This document shows positions 9,684 through 56,023 of a DNA stretch of 56,023 nucleotides, one piece after another. Numbering within the stretch: position 1 is the stretch's first letter; every line of letters begins with the position of its first letter. A program made the position numbers and the translations under genes. Source of the DNA: a virus (lineage: Duplodnaviria > Caudoviricetes); the IMG/VR virus record IMGVR_UViG_3300037310_000607, positions 1 through 56,023 of that record; one strand, written 5' to 3'. Under the pieces are notes generated by a model that saw only the letters and a list, made by a program, of their open reading frames with translations, was not told where the DNA came from and ran no database searches.

Positions 9684-10826
9684 TCACAGGCCGGAACGCG
9701 CCAGGCGCTCTCGCGCCTTGAGCATCCCGTCGGGGAGATCCTGCACGCCAAGAGCGGTCACGTCCTTCGGAGGGCCAGGCCGGCTTCCAGCCGGACGAGG
9801 CGTCCCCGAAGTCGGGCGCGCGCCCGATACCTCGCGCTTCTGACGGGAGGTTTCCGCGAACGTCGTGCGCTTGATGAGATCCCGAGATCGACCGTAACGC
9901 TCGACCAGGGACCGCACCATGCCCTCGATGTCCACCTCGCTGATGCCCTGCTCTTCCATCCTGAAGAGGGCGATCCCGAGCCTGGCCTTGACGTCTTCGA
10001 CCAGGTCGTCACGCATCGCCTTGTCCTTGATGGGCAGCTTCAGTGCAGCAGCGGTGTCGTCCACGAGGGCGGCAACTTCGTTCGGGAACTCACGCTCGAA
10101 GCGCTCGTGTGACTGCCGCTCGGACTCTTGCCTTGCCTCGGTCTCGCGGATCAGGTTCCGAGTCCAGTGCCGATCGTTCGTCAGCCGTTCGTGCTCGTAG
10201 CGGAGTCCTTCGCGTCGATCTGCCAGGTCGCGGAAGCGCGCCATGAGGTTGTCCTTCCTCATGGTCAGCGTTTCCTTGCGCTGTTCGAGGATGGCGCGCT
10301 GCCACTCGTCAGCGTCTTCGAGCTTGGCTTCGATCTTCGCTAGCTCCTCCGCAACGGACGCGCTCTGCTGAAGCGCTTCGTTCTGGGCGTCGTAAGCCTG
10401 CTTGTCGCGAGATTCGAGACCTTGGATGCGGGCGTCGAGTCGCTGAATGTCGGGATGGGGTGGCGCGTCCTCGGGCCGTTCGTCGGCCGCTGGCTTGCCT
10501 TTGCGAGCCGCTTCCAGCTCGCGTTCGGCCCGCTCGGCTCGCTCCCGTTGCTCGGTCGCGTAGCGGACCTTCTCCCAATACTGCTTCCCGATGACCCTCT
10601 TGCGTTCGTCTGGGTCCCGGACCTTCTCGTACTTGCGCTCCAGCGCTTTCCAAGAGTCCTCATCCGCGGGCTCGTCGTCGCTGCCAGAGGGCGGCTCCGC
10701 AGCGTCACCGGACGGGTCGTCCGTCCTTCCGTCGTCGTCAGTATCGGGGGGCGTCCCCGCCTCGGGCTCGGGCTCGGGCTCTGCTTCTGCTCCGGGCGCG
10801 GCGTCGAGGTTTGGATCGTCAGGCAT
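9684..10826 (-). CDS. scaffolding protein
   Basis: acidic disordered N-terminus, long coiled coil, immediately upstream of MCP. Confidence 0.65.
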   Translation of the reverse strand: MPDDPNLDAAPGAEAEPEPEPEAGTPPDTDDDGRTDDPSGDAAEPPSGSDDEPADEDSWKALERKYEKVRDPDERKRVIGKQYWEKVRYATEQRERAERAERELEAARKGKPAADERPEDAPPHPDIQRLDARIQGLESRDKQAYDAQNEALQQSASVAEELAKIEAKLEDADEWQRAILEQRKETLTMRKDNLMARFRDLADRREGLRYEHERLTNDRHWTRNLIRETEARQESERQSHERFEREFPNEVAALVDDTAAALKLPIKDKAMRDDLVEDVKARLGIALFRMEEQGISEVDIEGMVRSLVERYGRSRDLIKRTTFAETSRQKREVSGARPTSGTPRPAGSRPGPPKDVTALGVQDLPDGMLKARERLARSGL

Positions 10827-15631: not shown

Positions 15632-15782
15632 CAGCGCGTTCCTTGCACGCGGAGCATAGCACCGGAGTCGGCGGGTACGTCAACGGGTCGTCTACGTCGG
15701 GCTTGCAGGAGACCTCCTGGCAGCAGAACCAGCGCCAGCAGAGACGGCAGAAATGCCGGTGGTCGAACCTCAGCTCGGCCAA
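15615..15782 (-). CDS. small Cys-rich (Zn-finger-like) protein
   Basis: CRLC...CCQEVSC...CSAC; probable TTG start overlapping TerL end. Confidence 0.4.
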   Translation of the reverse strand: MAELRFDHRHFCRLCWRWFCCQEVSCKPDVDDPLTYPPTPVLCSACKERAGAKPH

Positions 15783-17266
15783 TGCAGGTCCCTCGCGAAC
15801 TTCGGCAGCTTCGCCTGGAGCTTGATCTTCTCGTGGATCTTCTTCCAGAGCTTGCGGTCGAGGACCTCGCGCGTCGTCTGGGGCGGCTTCTCCGCCCGCA
15901 GCGCGGCTGACTCCGCCACCCAGCCCCGCGGCATCAGGTAGGTGAGCCCCTGCGTGAGCATGTCCACGTAGTCGTCGTGGGCCGCGTTCGGGAAGTCGCG
16001 GAACTCGTTCACCAGCTCCTTGGCCCAGCGCGCCGACGCCGGCAGCCAGACGCGCCGGCCCTCGATGAGCCCGGCCACCGACGAGACGCCCCAGTGCAGG
16101 CGCACCGCCTTCGAGCCGACAGGGGGGATCGGAGCGATCCCGGGCATCTCGTGGGAAAGAAGCTGGATCACGGCCGGCCCGGAGGCTGCCTCCTCGATCA
16201 GCTTCCGGTAGGCGGTGGGCCACCGCTTCGAGACGGCCTGGATGGCGCGGATCGTCTCCGGCGTGTTCAGCCGGTCGTGAACGCAGTCGAGCACGTAGTA
16301 GTCGCCGCCGATCCGGCCGATGACGCCTCCGCACACGAAGTCGGAAGTGGCGATCGCCTTGAAGGTCAGGTCCCAGGACTGGAGGATCTCGTCGAAGTCT
16401 TCGAGCTTCGGTGGCTCGTCGTACCACTGCCACCATTCCGGGCTGATCGCGAAGCCCTCGGCCGGCGCCGGCCGCTGCTGGTAGAGCGCGGCGAAGGGGG
16501 CCGACGACATCTCTTTCAGCCGGATCGCCAGCCACTCCTCGTTGAAGCGATCTGGCCACAGCGCCTCGCCGGGCGTGCGTCCCAGCGGGTCATCGGCCTC
16601 GGCGAGCGCCGGCAGCGAGACGACGCGCCACTGGTCCGCGGTCTCGCTCGCCAGGATCCGGCCTGCCAGGTCGTCCTGCGCCCAGCGGGTCATAATGAGC
16701 ACGCAGATCGAGTCCATCCGGTCGAGGCGGGTGAGCGCGGTGGTCTTCCACCACTCCCAGACCTTGTCCTTGATGACCTTCGACGTGGCCTCCTCGGCGT
16801 TCTTCACCGGGTCGTCCACGATCAGCAGATGACAGCCCTTGCCGGTGATCGGCCCGCCGACGCCGGCCGTCTCCATCCCTCCGCCCGCGCTCGTCTCCCA
16901 GCGGTGCGAGGCCTTGGAGTCCTCCATCAGCTTCACGCCGATCACCGGCATGTGCTTCTCGACGGTGCGCCGGCACGCGCGGCCGTAGCCGGCGGCGAAC
17001 TCCGACTCGTAGCTGGTGAAGATGACCTTCGTCGCCGGGTCGAGCGCCCAGTTCCAGGTAGGGAACCAGTGCGAGCAGGTCTCGCTCTTGCCGTTCCGCG
17101 GCGGCATGAAGACCATGAGCTTCCGCGGCCAGCCAGGCTCGCGCTTCCAGAGCTGGACCAGCTCGTCCGACAGGAGCTTCAGGTGGCGCGGCGCGCCGAG
17201 CGGTTCCTTGTCGTCGGTGGTGAGCGCTATCCCGAGCTGTAGTGGACTGAGGAGATGCTCATGCAC
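15770..17266 (-). CDS. terL: terminase large subunit
   Basis: Walker A MPPRNGKS, Walker B LLIVDDP, IMTRW coupling motif, nuclease SWD...IEE...HDDYVD. Confidence 0.95.
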   Translation of the reverse strand: MHEHLLSPLQLGIALTTDDKEPLGAPRHLKLLSDELVQLWKREPGWPRKLMVFMPPRNGKSETCSHWFPTWNWALDPATKVIFTSYESEFAAGYGRACRRTVEKHMPVIGVKLMEDSKASHRWETSAGGGMETAGVGGPITGKGCHLLIVDDPVKNAEEATSKVIKDKVWEWWKTTALTRLDRMDSICVLIMTRWAQDDLAGRILASETADQWRVVSLPALAEADDPLGRTPGEALWPDRFNEEWLAIRLKEMSSAPFAALYQQRPAPAEGFAISPEWWQWYDEPPKLEDFDEILQSWDLTFKAIATSDFVCGGVIGRIGGDYYVLDCVHDRLNTPETIRAIQAVSKRWPTAYRKLIEEAASGPAVIQLLSHEMPGIAPIPPVGSKAVRLHWGVSSVAGLIEGRRVWLPASARWAKELVNEFRDFPNAAHDDYVDMLTQGLTYLMPRGWVAESAALRAEKPPQTTREVLDRKLWKKIHEKIKLQAKLPKFARDLHWPS

Positions 17267-33858: not shown

Positions 33859-33887
33859 ATTGTACTCTCGTGGGTTCGTCCAGTCAA
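33859..33887 (-). promoter_or_regulatory. sigma70 promoter with degenerate operator
   Basis: TTGACT-N17-TACAAT; CCCACGAG core. Confidence 0.8.
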
Positions 33888-34378
33888 GCCTCTCGCGCCC
33901 AGCGCCCGAGCGCCGCGGCCACGGCCGGGCGCCCGTAGAAGGCCGCCAGCTCGCGGTTTCGCGCCCGCACGCTCGCCTCCTCCGCCTCCAGGGCGGCGCG
34001 ATTCCGCCAGAGCGCGGCCTGCTCCAGCCAGTAGCGCGCCGCCGCGAGGTTCATAGCGCGGCTCACGCCGGCCGCCTCCCACCCGCACGGCGTCGGCCAT
34101 CCCGCGTGGCCGCGTCCCGGCCCGCCGTGCGCGAGGCGCCCCCAGGGCACCCCCGACAGCGGCTCGTTCCCGGCGAGCTGCGGCGCCGCCCAGCTCTTGC
34201 CGGCGGACCAGCGGTAGAAGGCCGCGCGTTCCAGGGCGGCCGCTCCGCGCGCCGCCGCCGACGGCGAGGCCTCGCCCACCCGGCGCAGGACGTGGCCGGC
34301 CTTGCGCTCCGCGCGCGCCTCGCGCCTGGACAGGCCGCCGACGCCCACGCCGCACGTCTCGCAGTAGAATCGTCGCAT
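33884..34378 (-). CDS. early hypothetical protein
   Basis: 164 aa, purine-rich RBS. Confidence 0.45.
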   Translation of the reverse strand: MRRFYCETCGVGVGGLSRREARAERKAGHVLRRVGEASPSAAARGAAALERAAFYRWSAGKSWAAPQLAGNEPLSGVPWGRLAHGGPGRGHAGWPTPCGWEAAGVSRAMNLAAARYWLEQAALWRNRAALEAEEASVRARNRELAAFYGRPAVAAALGRWAREA

Positions 34379-34390
34379 CCTCGCCCCCCC

Positions 34391-34540
34391 TCAGAAGCCC
34401 GTCACCGTGACGTACCACCCGCCGCGCCCGGCAGACTCCTCGATCATGTAGGCCGCGCCCAGGCGCGTCAGCTCGAACACGTAGCGCGCCAGGAGCCCGA
34501 TCTCCTCGTGCGCGAAGAACGCCGCATTGCTGCTCGCCAT
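34391..34540 (-). CDS. small early protein
   Basis: GGAGGTG RBS after a class-II promoter. Confidence 0.55.
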   Translation of the reverse strand: MASSNAAFFAHEEIGLLARYVFELTRLGAAYMIEESAGRGGWYVTVTGF

Positions 34541-34558
34541 CTCACCACCTCCACTCAC

Positions 34559-34587
34559 AACATGAGCCGGGCGCCGGCCCGGCGCTA
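34559..34587 (-). promoter_or_regulatory. variant promoter (class II)
   Basis: TAGCGC-N17-CATGTT with the same leader geometry as TTGACA promoters. Confidence 0.5.
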
Positions 34588-34875
34588 GAAGCCGCCCGCC
34601 GCGTTCGGCCCGCAGCAGCCGCAGCAGGGCGCGTCCTCGCAATGCGACGCGCGCACGCGCTCGCCGCCCCACCACTTGAGGCCCTCGCCACTCGCGCGCC
34701 CGTGGCAGCTCAGCCCGTAGACCCGCCCGCGCCCGTACCAGCGCGCCTGCTCGCCCACGGCCAGCTCCGCGCCGCATTCGGCGCAGCTCGCCGGGTAGCG
34801 GAGGGAGATCACCCCGCCCCGCCCCGCGCGCACCCGCGAACCCGAACCCCAGGCCCGCCCGTAGACCTTACGCAT
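34585..34875 (-). CDS. Cys-rich early protein
   Basis: CAECG...CH...CEDAPCCGCC. Confidence 0.55.
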   Translation of the reverse strand: MRKVYGRAWGSGSRVRAGRGGVISLRYPASCAECGAELAVGEQARWYGRGRVYGLSCHGRASGEGLKWWGGERVRASHCEDAPCCGCCGPNAAGGF

Positions 34876-36171: not shown

Positions 36172-36504
36172 GTGGAAGTGAGGGAGGCTCGGGAGGCGAA
36201 GCTGCCGCGGTGGGCGCAGGTGGAGTTGGGGCGGCTGCGGGCGAACCTGGCTGACCTTCACCGGCGGATGAACGCGGCGGCCGCGGGCGGGGACGGGTCG
36301 ATCCAGATCGAGGAGGAGGGGGACGGGAACCTGTTGCCGATGCGGCCGCTCGCGACGCGGCGGGTGCAGTTCGTGGTGGACGGGGCGCGGTTCGAGGCGC
36401 GGGTGGATGTTGCGCGCGGGGTGATCTTCTCGTCCTGGGACGGGGTGCTGCTCGTCGAGCCGTCGGCGTCGAACGTGGTGATCCTGTCCAAGAGGGACCG
36501 ATGA
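36172..36504 (+). CDS. hypothetical protein
   Basis: first gene of rightward operon; KLPRWAQ...LLVEPSASNVV. Confidence 0.6.
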   Translation: MEVREAREAKLPRWAQVELGRLRANLADLHRRMNAAAAGGDGSIQIEEEGDGNLLPMRPLATRRVQFVVDGARFEARVDVARGVIFSSWDGVLLVEPSASNVVILSKRDR

Positions 36505-40304: not shown

Positions 40305-40684
40305 CCTACGACGACTACGCCCGCGTGAAAGCCCACATCGAGGTGCTGCGAAGCATCGACGAGGGGCGCGTCCAGCTCGCCCAGGAGCCGAAGCACACGC
40401 TCACCATCAGCTCGATGGAGAAGATCCTCGCGGCTTTCGACTGGGCTTACGAGTTCCGGCGAATGCTCGCGTCCGTGCTCGGCCGCTTCGAGGACGAGTA
40501 CAAGAAGCTCGCGCCCGCGGAGACGCGCTACGACCCTGGCGACCAGCCGATCGACGCCGACCTGCTCGCCGCCTGCACGGCTCCCTTCCGGGCGGCCGGG
40601 CGTGGAGCGCAGGACTCGATCGACCACGCGAAGCAGGTGATCGAGACGGCGCGCTACGTCGCCTTCAAGCAGCGGAGGTCATGA
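40301..40684 (+). CDS. hypothetical protein
   Basis: GGAGGTG RBS, coupled. Confidence 0.6.
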   Translation: MTYDDYARVKAHIEVLRSIDEGRVQLAQEPKHTLTISSMEKILAAFDWAYEFRRMLASVLGRFEDEYKKLAPAETRYDPGDQPIDADLLAACTAPFRAAGRGAQDSIDHAKQVIETARYVAFKQRRS

Positions 40685-41052
40685 TGCCTGCGAAGAGCCT
40701 GCTCCGGGATCTCGACGCTCTGCTCCGTTCGATCGAACTGCCGGAGGGGATCCGATGGCTCGACGACGATCTTCCGTCCTGCCTCCTCGCGCGCGGTCAG
40801 ACCTACGGGCACCTGGCCTGCTTCGTGAGCTGGCTGCTGCACTTCACGCCCGCGACAGGTCCCGAGGGCCAGGGCGTGAGGATGTACGTCTGGAGGATCA
40901 GCATCCCCCTCACGACGTCGCTCATGGCCTCGATGGACGAGGAGCATCGCGCGGCCTTCTGGGCGCGGATCCAGGAGGAGATCGCGGGTTTCCAGGCGGC
41001 GCTCGCCGCGGGGACGGCGATCGAGATCCAGGACGGGGAGAACCTGCCATGA
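40681..41052 (+). CDS. hypothetical protein
   Basis: GGAGG RBS, coupled. Confidence 0.55.
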   Translation: MMPAKSLLRDLDALLRSIELPEGIRWLDDDLPSCLLARGQTYGHLACFVSWLLHFTPATGPEGQGVRMYVWRISIPLTTSLMASMDEEHRAAFWARIQEEIAGFQAALAAGTAIEIQDGENLP

Positions 41053-41399
41053 AGCTCAGCGAGTGCCGCACGTGCAAGGAGCCGATCTTCTGGGTCGTGA
41101 CCGACAAGGGCAAGAGGATGCCGATGGACGCCGAGCCGGTGTCGTCCGGCAAGTGGGTGGTCCGCGACGGCGAGACGGTGCGCGCGAGCTACATCGGCGA
41201 CAAGCCCTACAACGGCGACCGCTACAGCTCCCACTTCCAGACGTGCCCGCAGGCGGCCGAGCACAGCCGCCGCGAGCGCGACAAGCCCGCGATGGAGGGC
41301 GAGTGCAAGCCGAGTGAGGACGGCTTCTGCTCGACGCATCCGACGTGCGATCTCGTCCGCGTGACGCTCGAATCTCTCAGGAGGAACGTGAAGGCATGA
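41049..41399 (+). CDS. conserved phage Zn-binding protein
   Basis: CRTCKEPIFW...GKRMPMD...SHFQTCP. Confidence 0.65.
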   Translation: MKLSECRTCKEPIFWVVTDKGKRMPMDAEPVSSGKWVVRDGETVRASYIGDKPYNGDRYSSHFQTCPQAAEHSRRERDKPAMEGECKPSEDGFCSTHPTCDLVRVTLESLRRNVKA

Positions 41400-41614
41400 G
41401 CACCACGACGATCACCGGCAACAGCGGGCTCTACGCCCGCCACCAGAAGCTCAAGGCCCGGAAGCTCTGCGGCTTCACCTGGACGTCGAGGAGCGCGGCG
41501 CCTGGCCACGTCCACTCCTGCGCGGTGTTCGCCGGGCACGCGCGCAAGGTACACTCGTGCCGCTGCGGCTGCGCCTGCGCGCGCAACCAGAAGGGGAAGG
41601 TGGACCACCTGTGA
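41396..41614 (+). CDS. small Cys/His-rich protein
   Basis: C...HSC...H...HSCRCG. Confidence 0.5.
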   Translation: MSTTTITGNSGLYARHQKLKARKLCGFTWTSRSAAPGHVHSCAVFAGHARKVHSCRCGCACARNQKGKVDHL

Positions 41615-42088
41615 AGATCGGACGACGTGGCTTCCTGGCGGGGCTCCTCGCCACCCCGGCGCTCGCCAAGGCGACGAAGATCCGCGGCTTGCTCGGCAAG
41701 CTCTTCGGCTACCCGGTGCGCGAGACCGGGATGGCCACGGCCAACCTGGAGTCGATCGCCGCCTCGCTGAAGCACGCCTACCCGACGAGCCTGCGAGGCG
41801 CACATCAACAGGGAGAGCCCGTTCTTCGCCGCCTTGAAGCGCTCCGCCGCGCTGGAGGCGCAGATGCCGAGGGCGAACGCGAAGATCGTGGGCATCGACG
41901 ACCCCTACGCCGACGACAACCCACCGCCCAGGGACTCGATCTGGATCGACGACATCGACGACAACCCCGACAACCTACCTTCGGAGGATGAGCATGGCAG
42001 TCCACGTCGTCAAGTTGAAGCGCACGCTGACCTACGAGGTTCGCATCGACGAAGGCGGCGAGGACGGGCGCGAGGAGATCTCGCGTGA
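41611..42088 (+). other. Tat-signal protein with major-capsid-derived segments, interrupted by a frameshift near 41785-41794
   Basis: GRRGFL signal; MATANLESIAASLKHAYP (first frame) then EAHINRESPFFAALKR and MPRANAKIVGIDDP (+1 frame) match the MCP termini. Confidence 0.6.
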
Positions 42089-42230
42089 CGAGGCGATCTC
42101 CGATGCGAAGGACTTCGCGGACGAGGACTGCTACGTCTCGATCGAGCCGGAGGAGTACGCGAGCGCGACGGACAGCGAGTGGCAGCTCGACGAGTACAAG
42201 GTCGAGCCCGACGAGCCCGCCGAACCGTAA
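41988..42230 (+). CDS. small acidic protein
   Basis: GGAGG RBS; GC3-rich codons. Confidence 0.6.
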   Translation: MSMAVHVVKLKRTLTYEVRIDEGGEDGREEISRDEAISDAKDFADEDCYVSIEPEEYASATDSEWQLDEYKVEPDEPAEP

Positions 42231-42496
42231 GGCGTGCTGGGTCCCGTGCCCGGGCGGGTGTGGCGAGTATTGGTGTCTGACGCACGTGCAGCACGTCGCC
42301 GACTGCCCGTGTCCGCCGATCGAGGCATGGGGCGGCGTCGATCCATACCTCGGCAGGTGGCCATGATCGAACGGCAGTTCCGCCGCATCCGATCTCGGAC
42401 GCAGCCGCCGCTCGTTTTCAGCGAAGAGCGGTGCGCCTGCTGTCGAGGGCATATCTACACGCTCTGGAAGCTCGACCTTCCGCGATGGTGGTGGGG

Positions 42497-42742
42497 ATGG
42501 TGAAGAAGCGGGCGCCCTGGTCGATGAAGCTCGTCCGCACGCTCGATCTCGGCCAGGACAAGAAGCTCGTCCGCCTGAGCGTCACGAAGGACGGCGCCCT
42601 CCTGCGCGTCTCCCACTCGCGGAAGAAGTTCTGGCTGCCGGCGCGCGAGCTGGTGGACGTCGTCTTCCGCGCGGCGCAGCGCCGCTACTGCGAGATCAAG
42701 CTCTCAGGGAGAAGGCCGAGTGCGCCTCCGCCGCCTGCGTGA
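42497..42742 (+). CDS. hypothetical protein
   Basis: GC3-rich codons in operon. Confidence 0.5.
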   Translation: MVKKRAPWSMKLVRTLDLGQDKKLVRLSVTKDGALLRVSHSRKKFWLPARELVDVVFRAAQRRYCEIKLSGRRPSAPPPPA

Positions 42743-42871
42743 CCCGGACGTCGTCGCGGGCCTCATGCTCGCGGCCGGTGGCGCCGCCTGGCTCCTGGGC
42801 GAGCCGAACCTAGGCTGCTGGTACTTGGGTGGCGCCGCTGTGACGGCGCTCACCGCGCTCCTCGCCAGGGA

Positions 42872-43102
42872 ATGAGCCCGGAGGATCTGAGGGGGCGAGT
42901 CCCGAAGGTCTACCAGGGCATCGTGCTCCGCGCCCTAGAGGGCAAGGGAGGCCGCGCGAACGCCATCCGCGCGAAGTGCCTCGACTGCTGCGCCTACCAG
43001 CGCGAGATGATCCGCGACTGCGCTAGCGTCCGCTGCCCGCTCCACCCGTGGCGGCCGTACCAAACCGATCCCAAGGACGCTCCGGGTGAGCCAGAGTCGT
43101 GA
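42872..43102 (+). CDS. conserved phage Cys protein
   Basis: AIRAKCLDCC...C....CPLHPWR. Confidence 0.65.
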   Translation: MSPEDLRGRVPKVYQGIVLRALEGKGGRANAIRAKCLDCCAYQREMIRDCASVRCPLHPWRPYQTDPKDAPGEPES

Positions 43103-43298
43103 CTTCGACCACCGGCTTCTGCTGAGAGAGCGCTGAGCGGATCCGGCGCGGCGGGAGCTTCAGGCCGTGCCTGTTGCGGTGGTTGTAGCACGCGCAGCAG
43201 AGCCCGCGACGCAGCCACCCCATCCAGGGGGGGACGCGGTTGCAGTCGGCGCACCGGCCTGGAGCCCACGTCGGGTTGCGGACGATCTTGCGTCCCAT
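43023..43298 (-). CDS. small Zn-finger protein
   Basis: CADC...RGLCCACY; TGATG-coupled; convergent overlap with 42872..43102. Confidence 0.45.
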   Translation of the reverse strand: MGRKIVRNPTWAPGRCADCNRVPPWMGWLRRGLCCACYNHRNRHGLKLPPRRIRSALSQQKPVVEVTTLAHPERPWDRFGTAATGGAGSGR

Positions 43299-44227
43299 CA
43301 GTGGGTGATGATGACGGCGATCCCGCTCGCGCCTGCTCCACCTGCGCCAGAGTTGGAGCCGTTGACGGAAGCTCCTCCACCGCCTCCGCCACCGCCGTAG
43401 ATGCCACCGGCCGCGCCGCTACCTCCGACACCGGCCGAGTTGCCAGATCCGCCGCCGCCGCCCTGGCCGCCATAGGGTTCTCCGACGAGTACGGACGAGC
43501 CAGCCGTTCCGCTCTGGCCCTCTGACGAGCCACCGCCTCCGGCTGCCCCGCCCACGAACCTCGCGACTGAGAAGCTGCCCGAGTTGCCAGATCCGAAGAG
43601 GTTCGCCGCACCGACACCACCGCCGCCACCCCCGCCGCCGGCAGCGCGGCCGAACGTGATGACCGTAGCTCCAGCGCTCGCCTGGGTGGGACCGACGCTC
43701 CCGGCCCCCCCGCTGGCTCCGGCGGCGCAATTCGCCATCGAGCCGGAGGACCCAGCGCTCCCGCCCACGAGATTCCCGCCGCCTCCGCCGATGAGGCCAG
43801 CCGGATTCGCCTGAAGATGCGTGCCGAAAGACGTAGGTCCACCACCACCACCATCGCTGCCAGCGGTGTCGTCCGTTGTGACGGCAGCTCCGCCGGCACC
43901 GCCACTTCCGACCGTGACGCTGACGGTAGCCCCGAGCGCGGCGGCATCGAAGATTCCGTAGGAGCAAGAGCCTCCGCCGCCACCACCGCCTCCGCCACGT
44001 GGCGACGCGGCAGCTCCGCGACGACCGGCTCCGCCCCCGCCTCCGCCGCCGATGAGCCATACCTCAACCCACTGCGCCCCGGCAGGCTTAGTCCAGGTGC
44101 CGCTGGCCGTGAAGGTCTGCATCGCTCCGGTCAGCGTGGTGCTTCCGCCCCCGGTGGCGCCAGGCGGATAGGTCGTCTGCTGCACCGGCAGCAGGACCGC
44201 GAGGACAGCGAGCGCGTGGATCTTCAT
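43298..44227 (-). CDS. glycine-rich tail-fibre-like protein with signal-like N-terminus
   Basis: QTFTASGTWTKPAGA...V.V..IGGGGGGG...GASGIAVII glycine-rich domain. Confidence 0.65.
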   Translation of the reverse strand: MKIHALAVLAVLLPVQQTTYPPGATGGGSTTLTGAMQTFTASGTWTKPAGAQWVEVWLIGGGGGGGAGRRGAAASPRGGGGGGGGGSCSYGIFDAAALGATVSVTVGSGGAGGAAVTTDDTAGSDGGGGGPTSFGTHLQANPAGLIGGGGGNLVGGSAGSSGSMANCAAGASGGAGSVGPTQASAGATVITFGRAAGGGGGGGGVGAANLFGSGNSGSFSVARFVGGAAGGGGSSEGQSGTAGSSVLVGEPYGGQGGGGGSGNSAGVGGSGAAGGIYGGGGGGGGASVNGSNSGAGGAGASGIAVIITH

Positions 44228-48725: not shown

Positions 48726-49523
48726 TCACGCGAGGACGTAGTTGAACTTGTACTTCCCGAGCACGCTCCCGAGCAAGCTCGTCGCGTAGACGCGGAAGCT
48801 CCCGGCGAGCGGCTGGCAGCGACAGTCGATCGCGTCGAATTCGGCCTCGTCAGCGTCTCGCCCCGTTGCCGCGGCGCCAGACTGGTTCATGATGATACGG
48901 GAAGCGGGCGTGCAGGCGGGGTCGATCACCGTGAAGACCTTCTCGACGACGGCTGGCGTGCCGAAGTCCAGCTCGACCTCGGCCATCGTTGGCACGCCGA
49001 GCGAGCCGAGCGACTTCCAAGTCTGATCTCCGGCGAGCACCGTAGTCGGGCTGGCGACGCCCGTCCCGAGCTGCCCGGTCGGGACGAGCGCACCGGCGTC
49101 GAGCGAGGCGTAGCCGTTCGCCATGCCCTCTTCGCTGCGGAGCTGATACTGCGGGTGGTCGTCGTCGCCGAGACCGTCGGTGCCCCCGTGGTCCACACGA
49201 TGCACGTGGTCGGCGCGCGCGAGAGCCTCCGAGATGCCCTCGAAGTTCGCCACACCCGTCGTGACCGGGATGTCCGTGACGACGCCGTGAACGTGTTTCG
49301 CGGTGGCGCTGCCGAGGGTCGGGTCTCCGACATCGGTCGGGACGACGCGGATCGGCTCCGGCGCGGTGTCGCCGGCCTCGCCGCCGACGCCCACCGGGAG
49401 CCCGCGGTCCAGAACGCCGGTGACGTACTCGATCCAGCGCTCGACGTGGTCGGCGCAGTCCGCCCAGACGCGGTGCTTGAGGCCCCGCGGCGGTGCGATC
49501 AGCTTCCGGCGGTAGAGCGGCAT
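48726..49523 (-). CDS. tail fibre protein
   Basis: ARADHVH, GLGDDDHPQY, NGYASLD, LAGDQTW motifs. Confidence 0.65.
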   Translation of the reverse strand: MPLYRRKLIAPPRGLKHRVWADCADHVERWIEYVTGVLDRGLPVGVGGEAGDTAPEPIRVVPTDVGDPTLGSATAKHVHGVVTDIPVTTGVANFEGISEALARADHVHRVDHGGTDGLGDDDHPQYQLRSEEGMANGYASLDAGALVPTGQLGTGVASPTTVLAGDQTWKSLGSLGVPTMAEVELDFGTPAVVEKVFTVIDPACTPASRIIMNQSGAAATGRDADEAEFDAIDCRCQPLAGSFRVYATSLLGSVLGKYKFNYVLA

Positions 49524-52500
49524 CAGGCCCGCAGTCTACTCGCAACCGAGCGGAGGACTGCCTTCCTGGCGGCGTCGTGTGCCATGCGGTAGAGGCTCTT
49601 GAGGACGTACTCCTGGTGCTCCGGCTGGAGATTCTCGAATTCCAGTGAGGCGGCGAGCCGCCGGGCCTGCGCGGTCGCGCGCGCGTTGTAGGCCCCGTAG
49701 ATCTCGCGCTCCTGGCGCGTGAGCGTCGCCTTGCGCCCGTAGGTGCCAGGGATCGTGATCTCGCGCGTCGGAGCCGACGGGATGTAGCCGGCGCGCAGGA
49801 ACGCGCGCTCCAGGTCCGCTTCCGAGCCCTTCTCCTTCGTGTAGCGGAACGGGCTGAAGAAGCGGGAGAACGGTCCCTCCTCACGTTGGACAGGCTCGCC
49901 CGTGCCGCTGAGACGCGACGGGAGCTGCTGTGAGAGACCAGGCACCCGGGCCATGATCGGCGGCACGATGTAGCCCAGACCACCCGGCAGCTCCATCTGG
50001 CTCGTGTCGCGGATCGTCGGGTCGATCGCGCGCGCGGCCGTCGCGAGCAGGTTCGGGACCGCCATCGCCCCGATCATCTTCTTCGCGTAGGTGCTGCCGT
50101 ACCGTTCCGGGTCCTGAACCGCCTCTACGAGCGAGGCGACGCCGTCCAGGTAGCTCTTCGACATGACGTTGTTCGTGAGCGTTGCCACGAGCTTGTCCGC
50201 CACGTCCCCAGCCTTCTTCGCGTCCTTCGCCTCGGAGAGATCCGCGGCGAGGCCGAGGATCGTGGCCATCGGCTCCAGGCGCGCCATCGAGACCCAGTTG
50301 TCGCCCACCTTCACGGCGTAGGGCTGCTTGCCGGTACGCTGCCAGGCGCGTTGCTCGTCCGGGTCGGTGGGGCCGGATCCGGTGATGAAGCCGGACTGCG
50401 CGAGCCCGTAGAGCGAGGCGCCGATCATCGAGCCCCACAGGCCGCGAGCCAGCTCGTCGGCCGCGGCGCCGCCGCGAGTCTCGCCCGTGTAGGCGCGTTT
50501 CGCCGCACGCGCGAGCCCGAGCGGAGTCCTGGCCATCGCTTGCGAGAGGATTCGGCTCGGCGTCGAGATGAACGGGACAAAGAGCGTCAGCCAGGGGTGC
50601 GTGGCGCGCAGATGGAGCGCGGCCCCCGTGAAGGCACCGACTTGGTCCTGGAAGGTGGACTGCTTCGCAGCCTCCGCGGCGCGCTCGCCCATCCCGGAGA
50701 GCTTCGGGTCGTTCAGGATCGCTCGCTCCGCCGCGCTCAGTGAGGCATCGCCCGCTAGCTGTCGCTGAAGGTCGATCCGGCGCCACTCCGCCATCTGCGT
50801 GCCGAGCTGCTGGCCGTTCTGGTTGATGAAGTCGCGCAGCTCCTTGCCCTGGAGGCCCTTCGCCCGCCCGGCGTTGAAGCCGTCACGGTAGGTCTCAGCG
50901 AAGACCTCGGCCTCGTAGGCTGCGGAGCGGGCCGCCTTGTCGAGTGCGCGGAGGAGACGGCCAGGCGTGCGCCAGACCTTGCCGAAGGTCCCGGGCAGCG
51001 CGGGCGGCCGGTACTCGCCCTTGACGGCCATCATCGTCGGGTCGAAGGGGTTCTCGCTCAGCGTGTCGCGGAGGACCTGCGTGAAGTGCTTCGCGCCGAA
51101 GCCGTGCTTCCACTGGCCCTTCAGCGCCTCGAAGGCCTCCCCGGGCAGCCGCTCCGGTGCCCGGCCCTGGCCCCTGGCGAGCGCCGCCTCGATGAGCCCG
51201 GAGAGACCGCGCTCTGGCGTGCGGAGCAGGACCTCGTGTCCCCAGTTGCCCGCGACGTTCGCTCCCCACGTCGGCGGCGCCGAGAGGATGTTGTTGATGA
51301 ACCACTCGTTCACCTTGTCCAAGAAGCTCGGCTTCAGGATCTCGCGCCCGAGCTTCTGCATCTTCGCGTGGTCCTTTTCGAGCACCGCGCGGGACAGCTC
51401 GTCGAGGAGCTTCGGCGAGAGGTTGCGTCGGAGGTTCGACTGGACGATCTGCTGGAACATCCGCTCTTCCGGCGTGAGGCCGGCCGAGAGCTTCTTGTGG
51501 ATGTTGAGCGCGCGCGCGACCTCGGCGCTGGCCGCGACACGGTGAGCTGTGATCGCCCCCCAGTTGAGCGCGTGCGAGATCATCTCGCGTTCGGCAGCTT
51601 CGGCGCCGATGTCGTCTCCGGCCTTGCGCGCCTCCTCCATGCGCGAGCGCGCGCTCTGGAAGCGCTCCGCCGCGTCGTTCATCAGTGCGCGGCCGCCCTC
51701 GATCGTGGCGTCGTCCACGACGCCCTGCTCCCTCACGACGCGCTTGAAGTCGGCCTCGGTGCGGCCGCTCTTCAGCCAGTTGTGGCGCGCCTCCTCCCAG
51801 GAGCGGTACTCCCGGTTCTGATTGAGCGTGCCCTTGAAGGCGTCGGCGAGGCGCTGCTGGGTCTCGCGCAGCTCGGTCGGCCCGCCCAGGCGCGTCGTGT
51901 TGATCGGGAAGTCTGTGCCGGCCGGCGTCTCCGGGCGGAGTGGTCCTTGCCTGGTGGCCGCCTCCGCCGCGGCCGCCCGGGCTTCGCCCCGTGTGGGCTC
52001 GACGACGTCGCGGATCCCGTATGGCGGCGGGGTCCTGCGCGGCGCCGGCCCTTCGCCGCCGAGCGGCGGCGCCACCGGTGGCTCGCCAGGGGGCGGGGTG
52101 CGGCCGCCTCCGGGTGGCGGTTCGCCTCCGCCGCCGAAGAGGTTGCGCGACCACTCCCACAGGTGGCGCAGCGACTTCGTCCCGCCCTCCAGTAGCCCGC
52201 CCAGACGCGAAGCCATTTCGCGCGCCCACGGCCCGAAGCTCGTGAGCCCGCTCTTGAGCAGCCGCGCGCCCATCGTGACCATGCTCCCGACGAGCTTCGC
52301 CGGCAGCAGGATCGGAGCCGCGAGCAGCTCGACGCTCACCGCGCCCGCCTCCGAGGCGCGCCGATCGACGACGGAGACCTTCTCCTTGCGGATCCCCTGG
52401 TAGGCCTCGGCCGCGCGCTCGGCGTCGCCGCGGGTGTTGAGCGGCTTCCCGGCGATCGTATCGACCGGGACGCCCTTCTCGTTGACGAGGACGAAGCGGC

Positions 52501-55500
52501 CAGAGAGCGGCGGGATCGGCCCCTTGATCTCCGGCTGACCCTTCTTCCGGCCCTTCACGTAGGCGTCCACGTTCACCGGCTGGCCCTTACCGGACTCGAA
52601 GTCGGCGCGCGCCTTGGCGACGGCCGCCTCTGCGTCGGCCACGAACTTCTCGTAGGCCGGCGTTCCCTCCGGCGGGACGTCGTCGAGCCCGAGCTTCTTC
52701 GCGGCCGCCTTCGAGACTCCGCCGAGGGCCTCGTAGCCGGCCCCGGTCTCGGCTTGCTCGCCGAAGGCCTTCGCGTTGCGCTCGGCGGCGTCGATCTGGC
52801 GCCGGAGCGCCGTCCAGGCGCGGAGCGGGTCCTGCCCGTAGATCTGGAGCGCCTGCTCGGTCGCGCTCATCCCGATCCCGCCACCTGCCTCACGGGCCGG
52901 CTGACGGGCCGCCGCGGCGCCGCTCAGCGGCCGCAACGGCTTCAGCTCTCCTGGGTGCGCCCAGCCCTTCTCGCCCGGCAGCTTCACGAAGCCCTCGGGG
53001 TGCTCGGCCGTGCCGGGCACGAACTCGCCGGTGAGCGTCTTGTGGAGGCGCTGCGCGGTCGCCGGCTCCAGCTTGAGCGTGCCGTCGTCTGGCACCTTGA
53101 TCGTGAGCGCGCCCTCCTTCTCGACGTCGAACTTCTTCGCGATCTGGTCTGCGACCGACTCGGCCTGCTTCTTCGTGAAGGCCGGGGCCTCGGGCGGCAC
53201 GCGCGTTGTGCGCCCACGCGGGGGCAGCTTCGCCTTCGCCGCGGGAATCACCCCTTCGGTCGTCATGGTCGGGTGGTGACGCTCGACGACGGTGTTCGTA
53301 GACGTGATCCCGAAGGGCTGCGTCTCGCCGGGCTTGAAGGCGTAGAGCGTCGGGAGCGGATCGTCCGTCGCGCGCCACTCCAGTTCCGGCACCGTCCCGC
53401 GCTTTCCCTTCGCGGTGCGCGTGGCCTCGGACATGATGTGTCCGACCTGCTCGGCGGCGCTCGCGACGATGCGGCCGTCCTGGAGCTTGATCCAGACGAC
53501 GTCCCGCTTCTTGCCATAGCCGCCCTCGAAGGCCGTCCCCTTGCTCCAGCCGACGATCGTGGCGGGCGCAGCCTTCTCGGCCGCCGTGAAGATCTGGCTC
53601 GCCTGCGGGTGGTCGAGCTGGGATGGCGGGACCTTGGGCGTCGCGCCGCGGACGAGCACGGTCCCGTCGCCCCAGTAGTTGCTGCCCTCGGGCGAGGACA
53701 GCTCGACCATGCGCGTCCCGTACCGTCCCCCGAAGCTCTTCGGGGCACGCGGCTTCGGCACGAAGCTCACCATCGGCTCCGCGCGCACACCCGTCTTGCC
53801 CTCCGGGACCTCGCCTACCTCAGCCGCGACTTCGGCTGGACGTGTCGGGGCTGGACGCGGGACCTCCGGCGCGGGCTCGATCTTCGGCGCCGCAGCCTTC
53901 GCCGCGCGAGGCGCGCGTGCAACGCGAGCCGGCTTCGGTGGTGCGACTGCCGCCTTGCCCTCGGTCGTCAGGCGATAGTCGGCCTGGTTCCGGTTGAACT
54001 TGACGAGGCCGTCAACTTCCAGCGAGCGGATCACCTTCCGCGCCGTGGGCGCGTCGAGGCCCTCCTGCTGGAGCATGTCGCTCGTCACGCGGCCGGCGTT
54101 CTCGCGAGCGACACGAAGGGCGAGCGCCTGGTTGTCAGGCGTCGCCTGCGGCTCCGCTACGCCGGGCTCTGGCCTCGCTTCCGGTTGACGTTCAGGCGCT
54201 CGACCAGCTCCTTCGCTTGGCGTTCGGCCCGCGCCGCGCCCGCCCGGGACTCCTCCTCGGACGTCAGCGGTCCCGACCAGCTCTCCCAGGGCGGCGCCAC
54301 GTAGGACTCGTCCGACGTCATCCGGCCTGTCGGCGTGCTCGGCGGCCCATTCTGATGCGGCCTTTCGGATGGCACTGCTCACCTCCTCCGGCTTGTATTC
54401 TAGCCCACGTAGGAACGAAACGCCAGCGGTATCGTTGAAAGTGCCGCCGCCGACGAGTACGGCCTTGGCCCCAGCGTTGTCTACCACGTGGACCGTGACG
54501 TCCGTTGGCCTGATCTTGCCTGCCTCGATGCCTTCGCCGAGCCACTCCCGGATCTTCAGATTCACCTGGGGAATCGTCGGGTAGGCCTGGGCGAAGTACG
54601 GTGCCTGGACCGCTCGTCCCTTGCCGAGCGCCCGATCGAGCGTCCGCTTGAAGTTCGGGCCGGGCTCGCCGCCGTGGATGTAGATGATGTCTGCGCGGCC
54701 GCCGGACTGGAGCGTCTGCGCGACCAGATCACGCGGCTTCGAGGCATCGACAGTGCCGTCTGGGTTGAACTTGCCGGCCATCGTCCCATCGAAGATGGCG
54801 AACGCCTTATCGACGAGGTGCGGCACCTGGCGCGAGGCCGTGGTCTTGCCGGATCCGGGAGCGCCGGCCATGAAGAGAACGCCCTTCGCCTTGTCGTCCG
54901 GCACCTTGCCGTCGCGGATTGCCGCGAGAGTCCTCTGGAATGCCTGCTTCACGATCCACGACGACGCCTCGTGGACGGCCGGCGCGTTCGCCGATCGCGT
55001 CTGGAGCGTCTCGGCGTACTCCGGGAACAGCTCCCGCGCCTCGTCGGCGTTCAGCTCGATCGTGCCGTTCTTCGAGTTGCGGCGGATGTACTCCTGGACG
55101 TACCACTCCGGGTCCGCTTCGACGCGCCGGTTGACCTCGGCCTGGATCTTCGACTGCGCCGGTGTGAGCCCAGCGTCGGCCGCGGCGCCTGCTCCATCTG
55201 GCAGTACGGGCAGCTTCGAGATCGCGCCTTCCGGCAGTGAGCCGGCGCGCGACTCGTGCGTCCACGTCTCCTCGGAGCGTGCGGTTCTCGGTTCGAGGGG
55301 AGCGTCAGGCGAGACTTCGAGGACCGGGCGCGGATCGTAGAACTGCTTCGTCGTCGGGTCCTGCTTGATGAGCCCCCGATCGACGGCTTCGCGGATCGCC
55401 GCGTTCGCTCCGCCCTCGCCGAGCTGATCGACGAGGCGCTCGCGGAGCGTCTCCAGCGTCATGAGCCTCGGCGCTTCGCCCTTCTTCGGAACCTCCGGGC

Positions 55501-56023
55501 GGTGCGGGCCGGCAGCGCGCACCGTGTCCAGGACCGTCTGCGCGGCCTCGCCGAGAGCCGCCTCAGTCGCCGGCCCACGGCGGGCCGGGTACTCGAAGGC
55601 GTATGGTTCGCCGGTCGCCGTGCGCCGCGGCTTGGCCGGCTCAGCCGGCGGCGGTGGGGCGGGCGCTGCCTCCTGGGCTTCGAGCGCGGCTGTGCGCTCC
55701 TGGACAGTCTGCTCCGTCGGGCGCATCGGACGGATGGGGACACCTTCGGCTCGGCCGAGCCTGTCGGGAGTTGGCACCGGCTCACGTGCCGCGACCATCG
55801 CAGCATCCAGGTCCGGCTCGCGGCCGGCGCGCTCGGCAGCGATGGCCTGCTGGACCGCGGCCTTCATGAACTTCTCGCCCGCGATGAAGCCGCGGTCGGG
55901 CTTGCTCCAGCGCAGGATGCCCGCGCGCGTGAGGCCCTGGAGCATGAGCCCGGCCTCGCGCGTCGAGACGCCCAGGCCCTCGGCGACGTCCTTGGCCTGG
56001 ACGCGCCCGTTCGCTTCCAGCAT
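49523..56023 (-). CDS. giant internal virion / polyvalent protein with zeta-toxin-like kinase and winged-helix domains (5' end probably truncated)
   Basis: 2166 aa; GAPGSGKT P-loop; C-terminal LFVPFISTP, ARLEP, KSYLDG motifs of ejected internal virion proteins. Confidence 0.75.
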   Translation of the reverse strand: MLEANGRVQAKDVAEGLGVSTREAGLMLQGLTRAGILRWSKPDRGFIAGEKFMKAAVQQAIAAERAGREPDLDAAMVAAREPVPTPDRLGRAEGVPIRPMRPTEQTVQERTAALEAQEAAPAPPPPAEPAKPRRTATGEPYAFEYPARRGPATEAALGEAAQTVLDTVRAAGPHRPEVPKKGEAPRLMTLETLRERLVDQLGEGGANAAIREAVDRGLIKQDPTTKQFYDPRPVLEVSPDAPLEPRTARSEETWTHESRAGSLPEGAISKLPVLPDGAGAAADAGLTPAQSKIQAEVNRRVEADPEWYVQEYIRRNSKNGTIELNADEARELFPEYAETLQTRSANAPAVHEASSWIVKQAFQRTLAAIRDGKVPDDKAKGVLFMAGAPGSGKTTASRQVPHLVDKAFAIFDGTMAGKFNPDGTVDASKPRDLVAQTLQSGGRADIIYIHGGEPGPNFKRTLDRALGKGRAVQAPYFAQAYPTIPQVNLKIREWLGEGIEAGKIRPTDVTVHVVDNAGAKAVLVGGGTFNDTAGVSFLRGLEYKPEEVSSAIRKAASEWAAEHADRPDDVGRVLRGAALGELVGTADVRGGVPGGRGAGRTPSEGAGRAPERQPEARPEPGVAEPQATPDNQALALRVARENAGRVTSDMLQQEGLDAPTARKVIRSLEVDGLVKFNRNQADYRLTTEGKAAVAPPKPARVARAPRAAKAAAPKIEPAPEVPRPAPTRPAEVAAEVGEVPEGKTGVRAEPMVSFVPKPRAPKSFGGRYGTRMVELSSPEGSNYWGDGTVLVRGATPKVPPSQLDHPQASQIFTAAEKAAPATIVGWSKGTAFEGGYGKKRDVVWIKLQDGRIVASAAEQVGHIMSEATRTAKGKRGTVPELEWRATDDPLPTLYAFKPGETQPFGITSTNTVVERHHPTMTTEGVIPAAKAKLPPRGRTTRVPPEAPAFTKKQAESVADQIAKKFDVEKEGALTIKVPDDGTLKLEPATAQRLHKTLTGEFVPGTAEHPEGFVKLPGEKGWAHPGELKPLRPLSGAAAARQPAREAGGGIGMSATEQALQIYGQDPLRAWTALRRQIDAAERNAKAFGEQAETGAGYEALGGVSKAAAKKLGLDDVPPEGTPAYEKFVADAEAAVAKARADFESGKGQPVNVDAYVKGRKKGQPEIKGPIPPLSGRFVLVNEKGVPVDTIAGKPLNTRGDAERAAEAYQGIRKEKVSVVDRRASEAGAVSVELLAAPILLPAKLVGSMVTMGARLLKSGLTSFGPWAREMASRLGGLLEGGTKSLRHLWEWSRNLFGGGGEPPPGGGRTPPPGEPPVAPPLGGEGPAPRRTPPPYGIRDVVEPTRGEARAAAAEAATRQGPLRPETPAGTDFPINTTRLGGPTELRETQQRLADAFKGTLNQNREYRSWEEARHNWLKSGRTEADFKRVVREQGVVDDATIEGGRALMNDAAERFQSARSRMEEARKAGDDIGAEAAEREMISHALNWGAITAHRVAASAEVARALNIHKKLSAGLTPEERMFQQIVQSNLRRNLSPKLLDELSRAVLEKDHAKMQKLGREILKPSFLDKVNEWFINNILSAPPTWGANVAGNWGHEVLLRTPERGLSGLIEAALARGQGRAPERLPGEAFEALKGQWKHGFGAKHFTQVLRDTLSENPFDPTMMAVKGEYRPPALPGTFGKVWRTPGRLLRALDKAARSAAYEAEVFAETYRDGFNAGRAKGLQGKELRDFINQNGQQLGTQMAEWRRIDLQRQLAGDASLSAAERAILNDPKLSGMGERAAEAAKQSTFQDQVGAFTGAALHLRATHPWLTLFVPFISTPSRILSQAMARTPLGLARAAKRAYTGETRGGAAADELARGLWGSMIGASLYGLAQSGFITGSGPTDPDEQRAWQRTGKQPYAVKVGDNWVSMARLEPMATILGLAADLSEAKDAKKAGDVADKLVATLTNNVMSKSYLDGVASLVEAVQDPERYGSTYAKKMIGAMAVPNLLATAARAIDPTIRDTSQMELPGGLGYIVPPIMARVPGLSQQLPSRLSGTGEPVQREEGPFSRFFSPFRYTKEKGSEADLERAFLRAGYIPSAPTREITIPGTYGRKATLTRQEREIYGAYNARATAQARRLAASLEFENLQPEHQEYVLKSLYRMAHDAARKAVLRSVASRLRA
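54157..54375 (-). CDS. nested out-of-frame small protein (candidate antitoxin/immunity protein)
   Basis: GGAGGAGGTG RBS, upstream TAGAAT, GC3-rich codons in the nested frame. Confidence 0.6.
   Translation of the reverse strand: MPSERPHQNGPPSTPTGRMTSDESYVAPPWESWSGPLTSEEESRAGAARAERQAKELVERLNVNRKRGQSPA
54397..54425 (-). promoter_or_regulatory. internal promoter with operator copy driving the nested ORF
   Basis: TGGCGT-N17-TAGAAT; 11/16 operator at 54401-54416. Confidence 0.55.

Follow-up and report, generated by a model that had tools for sequence, protein, structure and literature searches.

Both ends of a phage capsid protein behind a signal-like leader: a rare gene family and its most likely inactivated copy in a Caudoviricetes provirus

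The IMG/VR virus record IMGVR_UViG_3300037310_000607 (Duplodnaviria; Caudoviricetes) was analysed over its whole length of 56,023 bases, in the following called the window. The record is classed as a provirus, with 68.6% G+C and an estimated completeness of 84%. Our subject is a small gene on its plus strand at 41611-42088, here called the mini-gene and its protein products minis, which an earlier, sequence-only reading had described as a mosaic of both ends of the phage's major capsid protein (MCP) behind an RRGFL leader. We find that mini-genes form a real but rare family derived from MCPs, with five loci in all as judged from their sequences, and that the copy in the window is most likely a recently inactivated member. 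It lies about 32 kb from the MCP gene within a plus-strand run of small genes without assigned function, and thus far from the head genes, as had been claimed.

The mini-gene is spread over two reading frames. Frame 1 opens at GTG 41611 with the leader (RRGFLAGLLATPALA), followed by MATANLESIAASLKHAYPTS, which starts at ATG 41731. The leader itself (41611-41667; KIGRRGFLAGLLATPALA) combines a basic n-region containing RR with an uncharged run of 13 residues, then ALA and K. A variable linker (KATKIRGLLGKLFGYPVRETG, 41668-41730), unconserved in the homolog alignments, connects it to the capsid-like part. This begins with the first half of a segment resembling the N-terminal arm (N-arm) of the MCP (41731-41793; MATANLESIAASLKHAYPTSL), which corresponds to MCP residues 1-19. 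At 41785-41794 lies a frameshift lesion, where two bases are absent relative to the MCP gene and one residue is missing relative to all four homologous minis. The second half of the N-arm-like segment, EAHINRESP, is then read in frame 2 (41795-41821; MCP ~23-31). It is followed at 41822-41917 by a segment resembling the capsid C-terminus (FFAALKRSAALEAQ, then MPRANAKIVGIDDPYADD; MCP ~392-423), so that frame 2 reads in order EAHINRESPFFAALKR, SAALEAQ, MPRANAKIVGIDDPYADD from ATG 41864 and an acidic tail. The tail (NPPPRDSIWIDDIDDNPDN, 41918-41974) contains Trp and has counterparts in two homologous minis described below, P0117 and P0121. The coding signal stops at its end, and the remainder of frame 2 (41975-42088) is a run-on of 37 codons of non-coding composition before the stop at 42086-42088, overlapping the next gene. 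A stop of the family type appears to have been lost from this copy.

Both frames carry the codon signature of a gene. The G+C content at third codon positions (GC3) reaches 0.95 over the frame-1 part (41611-41787) and 0.98 over the frame-2 part (41792-41974), the latter equal to the 0.98 of the MCP gene; the earlier observation that the shifted frame has normal codons was therefore borne out. Past the shift, the continuation of frame 1 falls to 0.43, and the frame-2 run-on has a value of 0.38. This frame-specific GC3 indicates that both frames were shaped as coding sequence, with a switch from one to the other. An antisense open reading frame (ORF) at 41431-41895 also passes a crude GC3 filter, and it does so via third positions shared with frame 2; since GC3 in its own phase falls to 0.55-0.65 over 41630-41780, it was rejected as a shadow ORF. 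A match of the frame-2 piece to ParE_toxin (E 0.011, 16.7 bits against a cut-off of 23) was treated as chance.

The similarity to both ends of the capsid protein proved significant by alignment and by shuffle tests. BLASTP of the mini against the MCP returned three matches, colinear and placed at its exact termini: MCP 1-18 (10/18 identities, E 4e-4), MCP 23-38 (6/16, E 0.059) and MCP 406-423 (9/18, E 6e-4). When both ends were scored together in a single alignment with a fixed price for one long deletion, the mini reached 116 against the MCP. Shuffled minis gave 49.8 +/- 7.7, none of 2000 reaching 116, and neither did any of 1000 shuffled MCPs, so that the mosaic claim survived the shuffled-control comparison proposed with it. 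In the case of P0117 and P0121, the same alignment against MCPs gave scores of 110-139, which 0/1000 shuffles reached. A profile built from the four homologs alone, leaving out the window copy, matched the MCP family profile over MCP 2-41 in hhalign (probability 96.5%, E 8.6e-10); the homology of the family to the MCP is thus independent of the window sequence. With a mini profile that does include the read-through of the window copy, MCP N-termini were matched in 15 of 16 MCP-bearing records, the 16th beginning inside the gene, and MCP C-termini in 8 of the 16. Residues conserved among capsids and kept in the mini family include LK.AYP, P31, MP.AN and DP. A default tblastn self-search found no other fragment, and this same search misses the mini itself. 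When the ends of 28 other large window proteins were tried as a control, low-complexity matches dominated the output, and this control was not used.

The junction between the two capsid ends is best placed at MCP ~31/~392. In P0117, ...RSP is followed by FLAY..., a stretch that pairs with MCP 392-419 without any gap (FLAYVGSVENQINTMPRAN...). All five minis share this junction, because the members align to each other gapless there. With the window copy alone, the aligner could not separate it from a junction at 38/405. Some 360 central residues are therefore missing; the large central gap described before is real, and its size of about 365 residues needs a small correction.

To search for intact relatives, the mini was read through the lesion via one four-letter step and compared with 1.84 billion protein representatives. 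Five matches were obtained at E <= 0.001. Three of them (P0115, P0116 and P0118) are long repeat proteins that match weakly and many times over, through the acidic tail or a unit like a tetratricopeptide repeat (TPR), and were treated as chance. The other two are small proteins. P0117 (100 residues) aligns over its whole length with 37% identity over 102 columns (E 3e-15), and contains in a single frame the RRGFL leader, an N-arm-like part (ALKNAYPPGSF...SPF), a C-terminal-like part (NLENQMPKAN...) and an acidic end. P0119 (80 residues; P0120 is a 114-residue version with a longer start) shows 45% identity over 73 columns (E 1e-14). Its leader is nearly letter-for-letter that of the window, followed by an N-arm-like part, shortly after which the protein ends. 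A profile search added P0121 (112 residues), which is 75% identical to P0117 and has an acidic Trp-containing tail. The absence of intact homologs in relatives would have spoken for a decayed duplication, and P0117 and P0121 answer this directly: in both, a single frame runs through leader, N-part, C-part and acidic tail.

The remaining member is found in a related phage, G010, a complete genome of 66,782 bases with terminal repeats. Its mini ORF encodes 60 residues, with leader and N-arm-like part. Its GTG start and the stop of the protease gene before it form a GTGA, and the next ORF starts by a GTGA over the mini stop. Downstream of that stop, likeness to the C-part was found in no frame, which points to the short form as an established gene and not a fresh break. 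Intact members thus range from 60 to 112 residues, the long form comprising leader, N-arm, last strand with C-terminal tail and acidic tail, the short form leader and N-arm. The upstream gene (G010 33876-34859; contig L042 1677-2657, minus strand) encodes a serine protease (PHROG 20754, E 1.5e-46, with a weak Nal1_C match). Its neighbours include a lipoprotein-like ORF, one whose C-terminal part is hydrophobic and a signal-like one of 51 residues; together they may form an envelope or lysis gene set.

Beyond these loci the family is sparse. Among 19 IMG/VR relatives of the window MCP, only G010 has a mini; 16 of them were scanned over their full records with the mini profile, in a set of 17 that also included a further phage, G020, and the other three (G001-G003) by tblastn; among the three relatives with terminal repeats (G001, G010 and G016) this is one of three. 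Three profiles found no member besides G010 in IMG/VR, and none in GTDB genome contigs. JGI metagenome contigs yielded no further mini, only one leader-only contig. In 401 Planctomycetota genomes three had a match, two in MCP genes and one borderline in a frame of 1853 residues, with no small ORF among them. The family had no match in Pfam, PHROGs, NCBIfam, PADLOC, PDB sequences or 50,697 GenBank phage records. Single pieces of the window copy also gave no matches, be it residues 1-60 in a protein homolog search, blastn against GenBank phages or the searches of G001-G003.

Regarding origin, the assumption that the mini-gene was copied from this phage's own MCP had to be given up. The window mini stands at about the same distance from many MCPs of the family: compared with 106 of them, it scores up to 119, and its own MCP ranks only 4th with 116; the G010 mini ranks its own MCP 36th. 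Between phages, the MCP termini are conserved far better than the minis are to any MCP. At the same time, the minis share changes not seen in MCPs: by eye, the conserved E12 is replaced in 5/5 and R33 in 4/5. Together with the common leader and the common junction, these changes point to one old deletion-fusion event, followed by divergence and transfer among phages. In such an event, an HK97-fold capsid gene would have lost about 360 central codons once, joining MCP ~1-31 to ~392-423, and the deletion product would have been fused behind an N-terminal hydrophobic leader with RRGF(L/I). The mini is accordingly not recent debris from the MCP of this phage. The neighbourhoods of the window and G010 mini-genes have no homologous genes in common, and the structural modules of the two phages do share homologs.

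In the case of the window copy, the break in the frame is well defined. A DNA alignment of the mini to the 5' end of the MCP gene places a 2-base gap exactly at the frame change, and in protein alignments the homologs carry one residue more at this point. Two runs from freshwater metagenomes each contain a contig of this region, one of 45,414 bases (depth 26.7) and one of 45,295 bases (depth 11.5), and both agree with the window throughout 41300-42300 without a single difference or gap; these runs are possibly sources of this record, and contigs hide rare variants. Because a 2-base deletion in the N-arm core splits the frame, and the shifted frame lacks the family stop, the full-length protein is probably not made in this phage. 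Thus, where a programmed shift, a mutation and a sequencing error had been offered side by side, mutation is the option that fits, and the window copy is most likely a recently inactivated family member. The two ends of the gene lie in one frame and the middle in another, as two small insertions or deletions summing to three bases would leave it; this could be chance.

Conservation within the family is highest in the leader, where R, R, G and F never vary and a proline persists after the hydrophobic run. It is made up of 2-4 basic residues, RR among them, then 8-13 uncharged residues in a row and then again basic residues, with RRGFL or RRGFI in 5/5 minis. A clean A-x-A is present in the window copy only (ALA-K). 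Signals of the twin-arginine translocation (Tat) pathway have a motif close to S/T-R-R-x-F-L-K, and the RRGF(L/I) of the minis agrees with this consensus. Profile searches with seven leader proteins gave no match to the Tat models PF10518 and TIGR01409 in Pfam and NCBIfam at E up to 10, where HMMER filters may drop weak short matches, and no Tat model in Pfam matched the window ORF at E up to 0.1. Language-model neighbours with Tat-signal clusters scored 0.80-0.83, under the tool's mark of 0.9. Of the proposed Tat leader, the twin-arginine motif is thus present and a family-level match is missing. The leader is built like a signal peptide, and only the motif hints at Tat export.

A near-identical leader, with 15/17 residues equal to those of P0117, was also found in an unrelated phage, G020, where it heads a pair of neighbouring small ORFs that shortly precede the large terminase gene. 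These ORFs (contig L013 4396-4653 and 4816-5106, plus strand) share the leader RRG(F/L)LGRLL, with RRGFL in one and RRGLL in the other, and their remainders are unrelated to MCP. The leader is therefore a portable module. A general rule of this leader joined to a piece of the phage's own head protein was considered and rejected: the second G020 ORF has only a sub-threshold match to Phage_cement_2 (E 0.0059), and no paralogous partner was found in G020 for either ORF.

The capsid gene to which the family relates is located at 8383-9654 on the minus strand of the window and encodes 423 residues that match PHROG 14242 'major head protein' (E 8.3e-20) and, by tblastn, show weak similarity to annotated capsid genes of Arthrobacter phages (24% identity). 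The AlphaFold2 model (mean predicted local distance difference test score, pLDDT, 87.5; predicted template modelling score 0.86) shows an HK97-type capsid fold with the spine helix at 112-135, and its top Foldseek matches are solved phage capsids, namely Mic1 (E 4e-12) followed by A-1(L), SU10 and HK97. The MCP thus displays the complete fold, with spine helix, A and P domains. The mini covers MCP ~1-31 and ~392-423 only and is predicted to be unfolded; it is a derived fragment of the MCP family and not a functional member, and could not serve as a shell subunit.

Immediately upstream of the MCP gene, a minus-strand ORF at 9684-10826 encodes 380 residues, acidic at the N-terminus, charged over a long middle stretch and basic at the C-terminal end. 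It has no PHROG match and is a candidate scaffolding protein by position and composition only, and as such the putative partner of the N-arm. The large terminase gene is found at 15770-17266. Between terminase and scaffold, a minus-strand ORF of 905 residues (12256-14973) has a weak PHROG match to 'head-tail adaptor' (E 5e-4) and is probably a portal with extra domains.

Several neighbours of the mini-gene can be described. The start codon GTG (41611-41613) shares bases with the TGA that ends the preceding ORF (41612-41614), forming a GTGA, and the frame-1 stop TGA 41989-41991 lies over ATG 41988 in an ATGA overlap (41988-41991). The gene that follows on the plus strand (41988-42230; 78-80 residues) encodes a strongly acidic protein with many D/E, ending in ...EPDEPAEP and without a family match, whose composition we take to be reminiscent of DNA-mimic proteins; a GGAGGA at 41981-41986 precedes its ATG 41994. 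Within the mini-gene, at 41854-41866, GGAGG (41854-41858) stands five bases ahead of ATG 41864, a possible internal start for a leaderless C-part peptide, given here as an observation on the sequence. No sigma-70-like promoter and no plus-strand terminator was found within 40500-43400, where one terminator-like site on the minus strand was not above shuffle level. The first listed gene of the plus-strand run of small genes (36172-36504) matches DUF7239 (E 1e-13) and PHROG 3236, both without assigned function. At 43298-44227, on the minus strand, an ORF of 309 residues with a hydrophobic N-terminal start and long glycine runs (GGGGGG...) adjoins tail-side genes.

Two further observations concern the phage as a whole. 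A giant minus-strand ORF at 49523-56023 continues past the window end with more than 2166 residues, unusually big for a phage protein; its homolog in G010 (51479-65137, minus strand; about 13.7 kb by a crude gene call) is 39% identical over 953 residues. In GTDB genome contigs, only two contigs with an MCP of the window type were found (L015 and L016, 4-5 kb, 67% identity), binned to metagenome-assembled genomes of a Planctomycetota and of a Thermoguttaceae member; this is a weak host hint, as short phage contigs are readily mis-binned.

What could the intact members do? A capsid decoy, an assembly inhibitor or a membrane tether had been offered by the earlier reading, each of which may or may not apply. 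Common to all members are the leader and the capsid N-arm. Modelled alone by AlphaFold2 with an alignment, P0117 reached a pLDDT of 57.9, and the intact members are predicted to have no stable fold by themselves. The N-arm of capsid proteins is a contact site in studied HK97-fold phages. In P22, acidic residues of the coat N-arm hold the C-terminal helix-turn-helix of the scaffold in the procapsid, and after expansion the N-arm is a loop projecting into the adjacent subunit (PMC9965877). For 80alpha, the helix-and-hook at the scaffold C-terminus packs on the capsid N-arm, where the satellite protein CpmB competes (PMC5644958).

By analogy, an unfolded mini keeping the conserved N-arm residues might mimic the N-arm. 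Such a mimic would occupy the partner of the N-arm, either the scaffold C-terminus (candidate 9684-10826) or a neighbouring capsid subunit. The leader would bring it to the membrane or to the export machinery and so set its site of action. The outcome would be that capsid assembly is modulated or poisoned, be it that of the own phage or of related superinfecting phages. Taken alone, this mechanism of N-arm mimicry with leader targeting can be put forward only tentatively. The overall reading that we favor, a recently inactivated copy of a rare accessory family whose intact members act as N-arm mimics, seems to us about evenly poised between right and wrong.

A number of points weigh against this reading. 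The family is very rare, with its five loci and a mini in just 1/19 of the MCP relatives. If P0117 and P0121 are taken as a single lineage, the C-part is absent or the frame is shifted in three of the four lineages, which would fit a decaying relic as well. The replacement of E12 and R33 implies that the minis may not bind the partner of the MCP N-arm at all. Furthermore, an exported mini could not meet a scaffold or capsid in the cytoplasm, so that leader and mimicry pull apart; this tension would be eased if the leader were a membrane tag or a Tat signal of the hitchhiker type. The gene neighbourhoods of the window and G010 copies give no functional clue. A complex prediction of the MCP with P0117 residues 23-100 gave a score of 0.00, with controls not run, and counts neither way.

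The strongest competitor holds that the whole family is functionless debris, an ancient internal deletion of a duplicated capsid gene behind a leader ORF that is decaying everywhere. Rarity, the truncated forms in G010 and P0119, the frameshift in the window, the predicted lack of an own fold and the lack of any family annotation are all compatible with it. Debris would, however, not be expected to keep its frames open and a motif intact (LK..YP, SPF, L+) where lineages are only 37-45% identical, nor a leader that is more conserved than the remainder, nor GC3 of 0.95-0.98 in the frames used. Moreover, the mini-genes of the window and of G010 are integrated into operons, as their start-stop overlaps show, and the G010 short form, having no C-part remnant, behaves as an established gene. 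Overall we consider debris unlikely.

A more specific version of the mimic idea would be a capsid-interference device, in which the leader ties the N-arm mimic to the membrane or the Tat translocon, and the capsid subunits or scaffold of a related superinfecting phage are held there or leave the cytoplasm as hitchhikers, so that the heads of the rival stay unbuilt. We regard this as improbable. If it were true, it would be a bacterial-virus counterpart of capsid-derived restriction factors, with the window representing a lineage that just lost its weapon.

Another explanation, which we judge slightly more improbable still, is a decoy that titrates or blinds a host sensor of capsid protein of the CapRel or Lit type. 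The minis do copy only short, surface-accessible MCP ends, are predicted to have no own fold and sit among small accessory genes. Against this, no connection of the locus to CapRel, Lit or another known defence family emerged, PADLOC giving 0 matches for nine proteins (minis, both window frames and neighbours). A decoy acting in the cytoplasm would also hardly be expected to have an invariant leader of export or membrane type, and the minis are not closest to the MCP of their own phage, which ranks 4th of 106 for the window and 36th for G010.

It seems very improbable that a programmed +1 frameshift near 41790 yields a full-length mini-capsid protein. The downstream frame is indeed fully coding in character (GC3 0.98), the lesion is fixed in two assemblies, and both the gene start and the frame-1 stop lie in translational-coupling overlaps. 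Over 41779-41800, however, inspection by eye of ACG AGC CTG CGA GAG showed neither a slippery codon that would let the P-site tRNA pair again in +1 nor a homopolymer or other slippage run. The four homologs and the MCP are unshifted at this position, and the shifted frame finds no stop until 42088, adding 37 residues without coding signal in an overlap with the next gene. Finally, an assembly or sequencing error with the gene intact in nature, for which only the general possibility in metagenome assemblies speaks, is extremely improbable, because the contigs of both runs are identical, the site has no homopolymer and the long neighbouring genes are intact.

We therefore return to the reading of an inactivated copy from a family of possible N-arm mimics. 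Small phage proteins that imitate parts of assembly proteins are known, and the mini family has so far been undescribed: among the matches listed by full-text searches of the literature, none described a gene made from both capsid-protein ends behind an export-like leader. The locus illustrates a structural gene that was trimmed into an accessory gene and then lost again. If capsid assembly or sensing is what the intact members target, the family would offer a small natural tool marking a critical contact surface of HK97-fold capsids, and would be a new class of phage-phage or phage-host interference.

Altogether, the mini resembles four known systems, each in part. With Tat signals, including those that allow hitchhiker export (PMC4273604), it shares RR followed by F and L/I, a short hydrophobic stretch and then basic residues. 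It differs from them in that its leader matches no Tat model, its uncharged run has 8-13 residues only and its passenger is predicted to be unfolded. With the HK97-fold MCP it shares the N-arm and C-terminal strand, by sequence homology to MCP ~1-31 and ~392-423; it lacks the body of A and P domains and adds a leader and an acidic tail that are found in no MCP of the family. In animals, restriction factors such as Fv1 and enJS56A1 are resident viral elements in which a derivative of a capsid gene interferes with incoming relatives. They belong to another domain of life, have another fold and carry no leader, and interference by the mini is an analogy only. The SaPI1 protein CpmB may be comparable in its way of working, as a small accessory protein that re-uses a short head-assembly piece to engage the usual partner of that piece at the interface of N-arm and scaffold (PMC5644958); a relation in sequence is not expected. 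CpmB copies the C-terminal helix-and-hook of the helper's scaffold, is encoded on a satellite and has no leader, whereas the parts copied in the mini come from the capsid side and the genomes that host it are phages with their own terminase, portal-sized gene and MCP.

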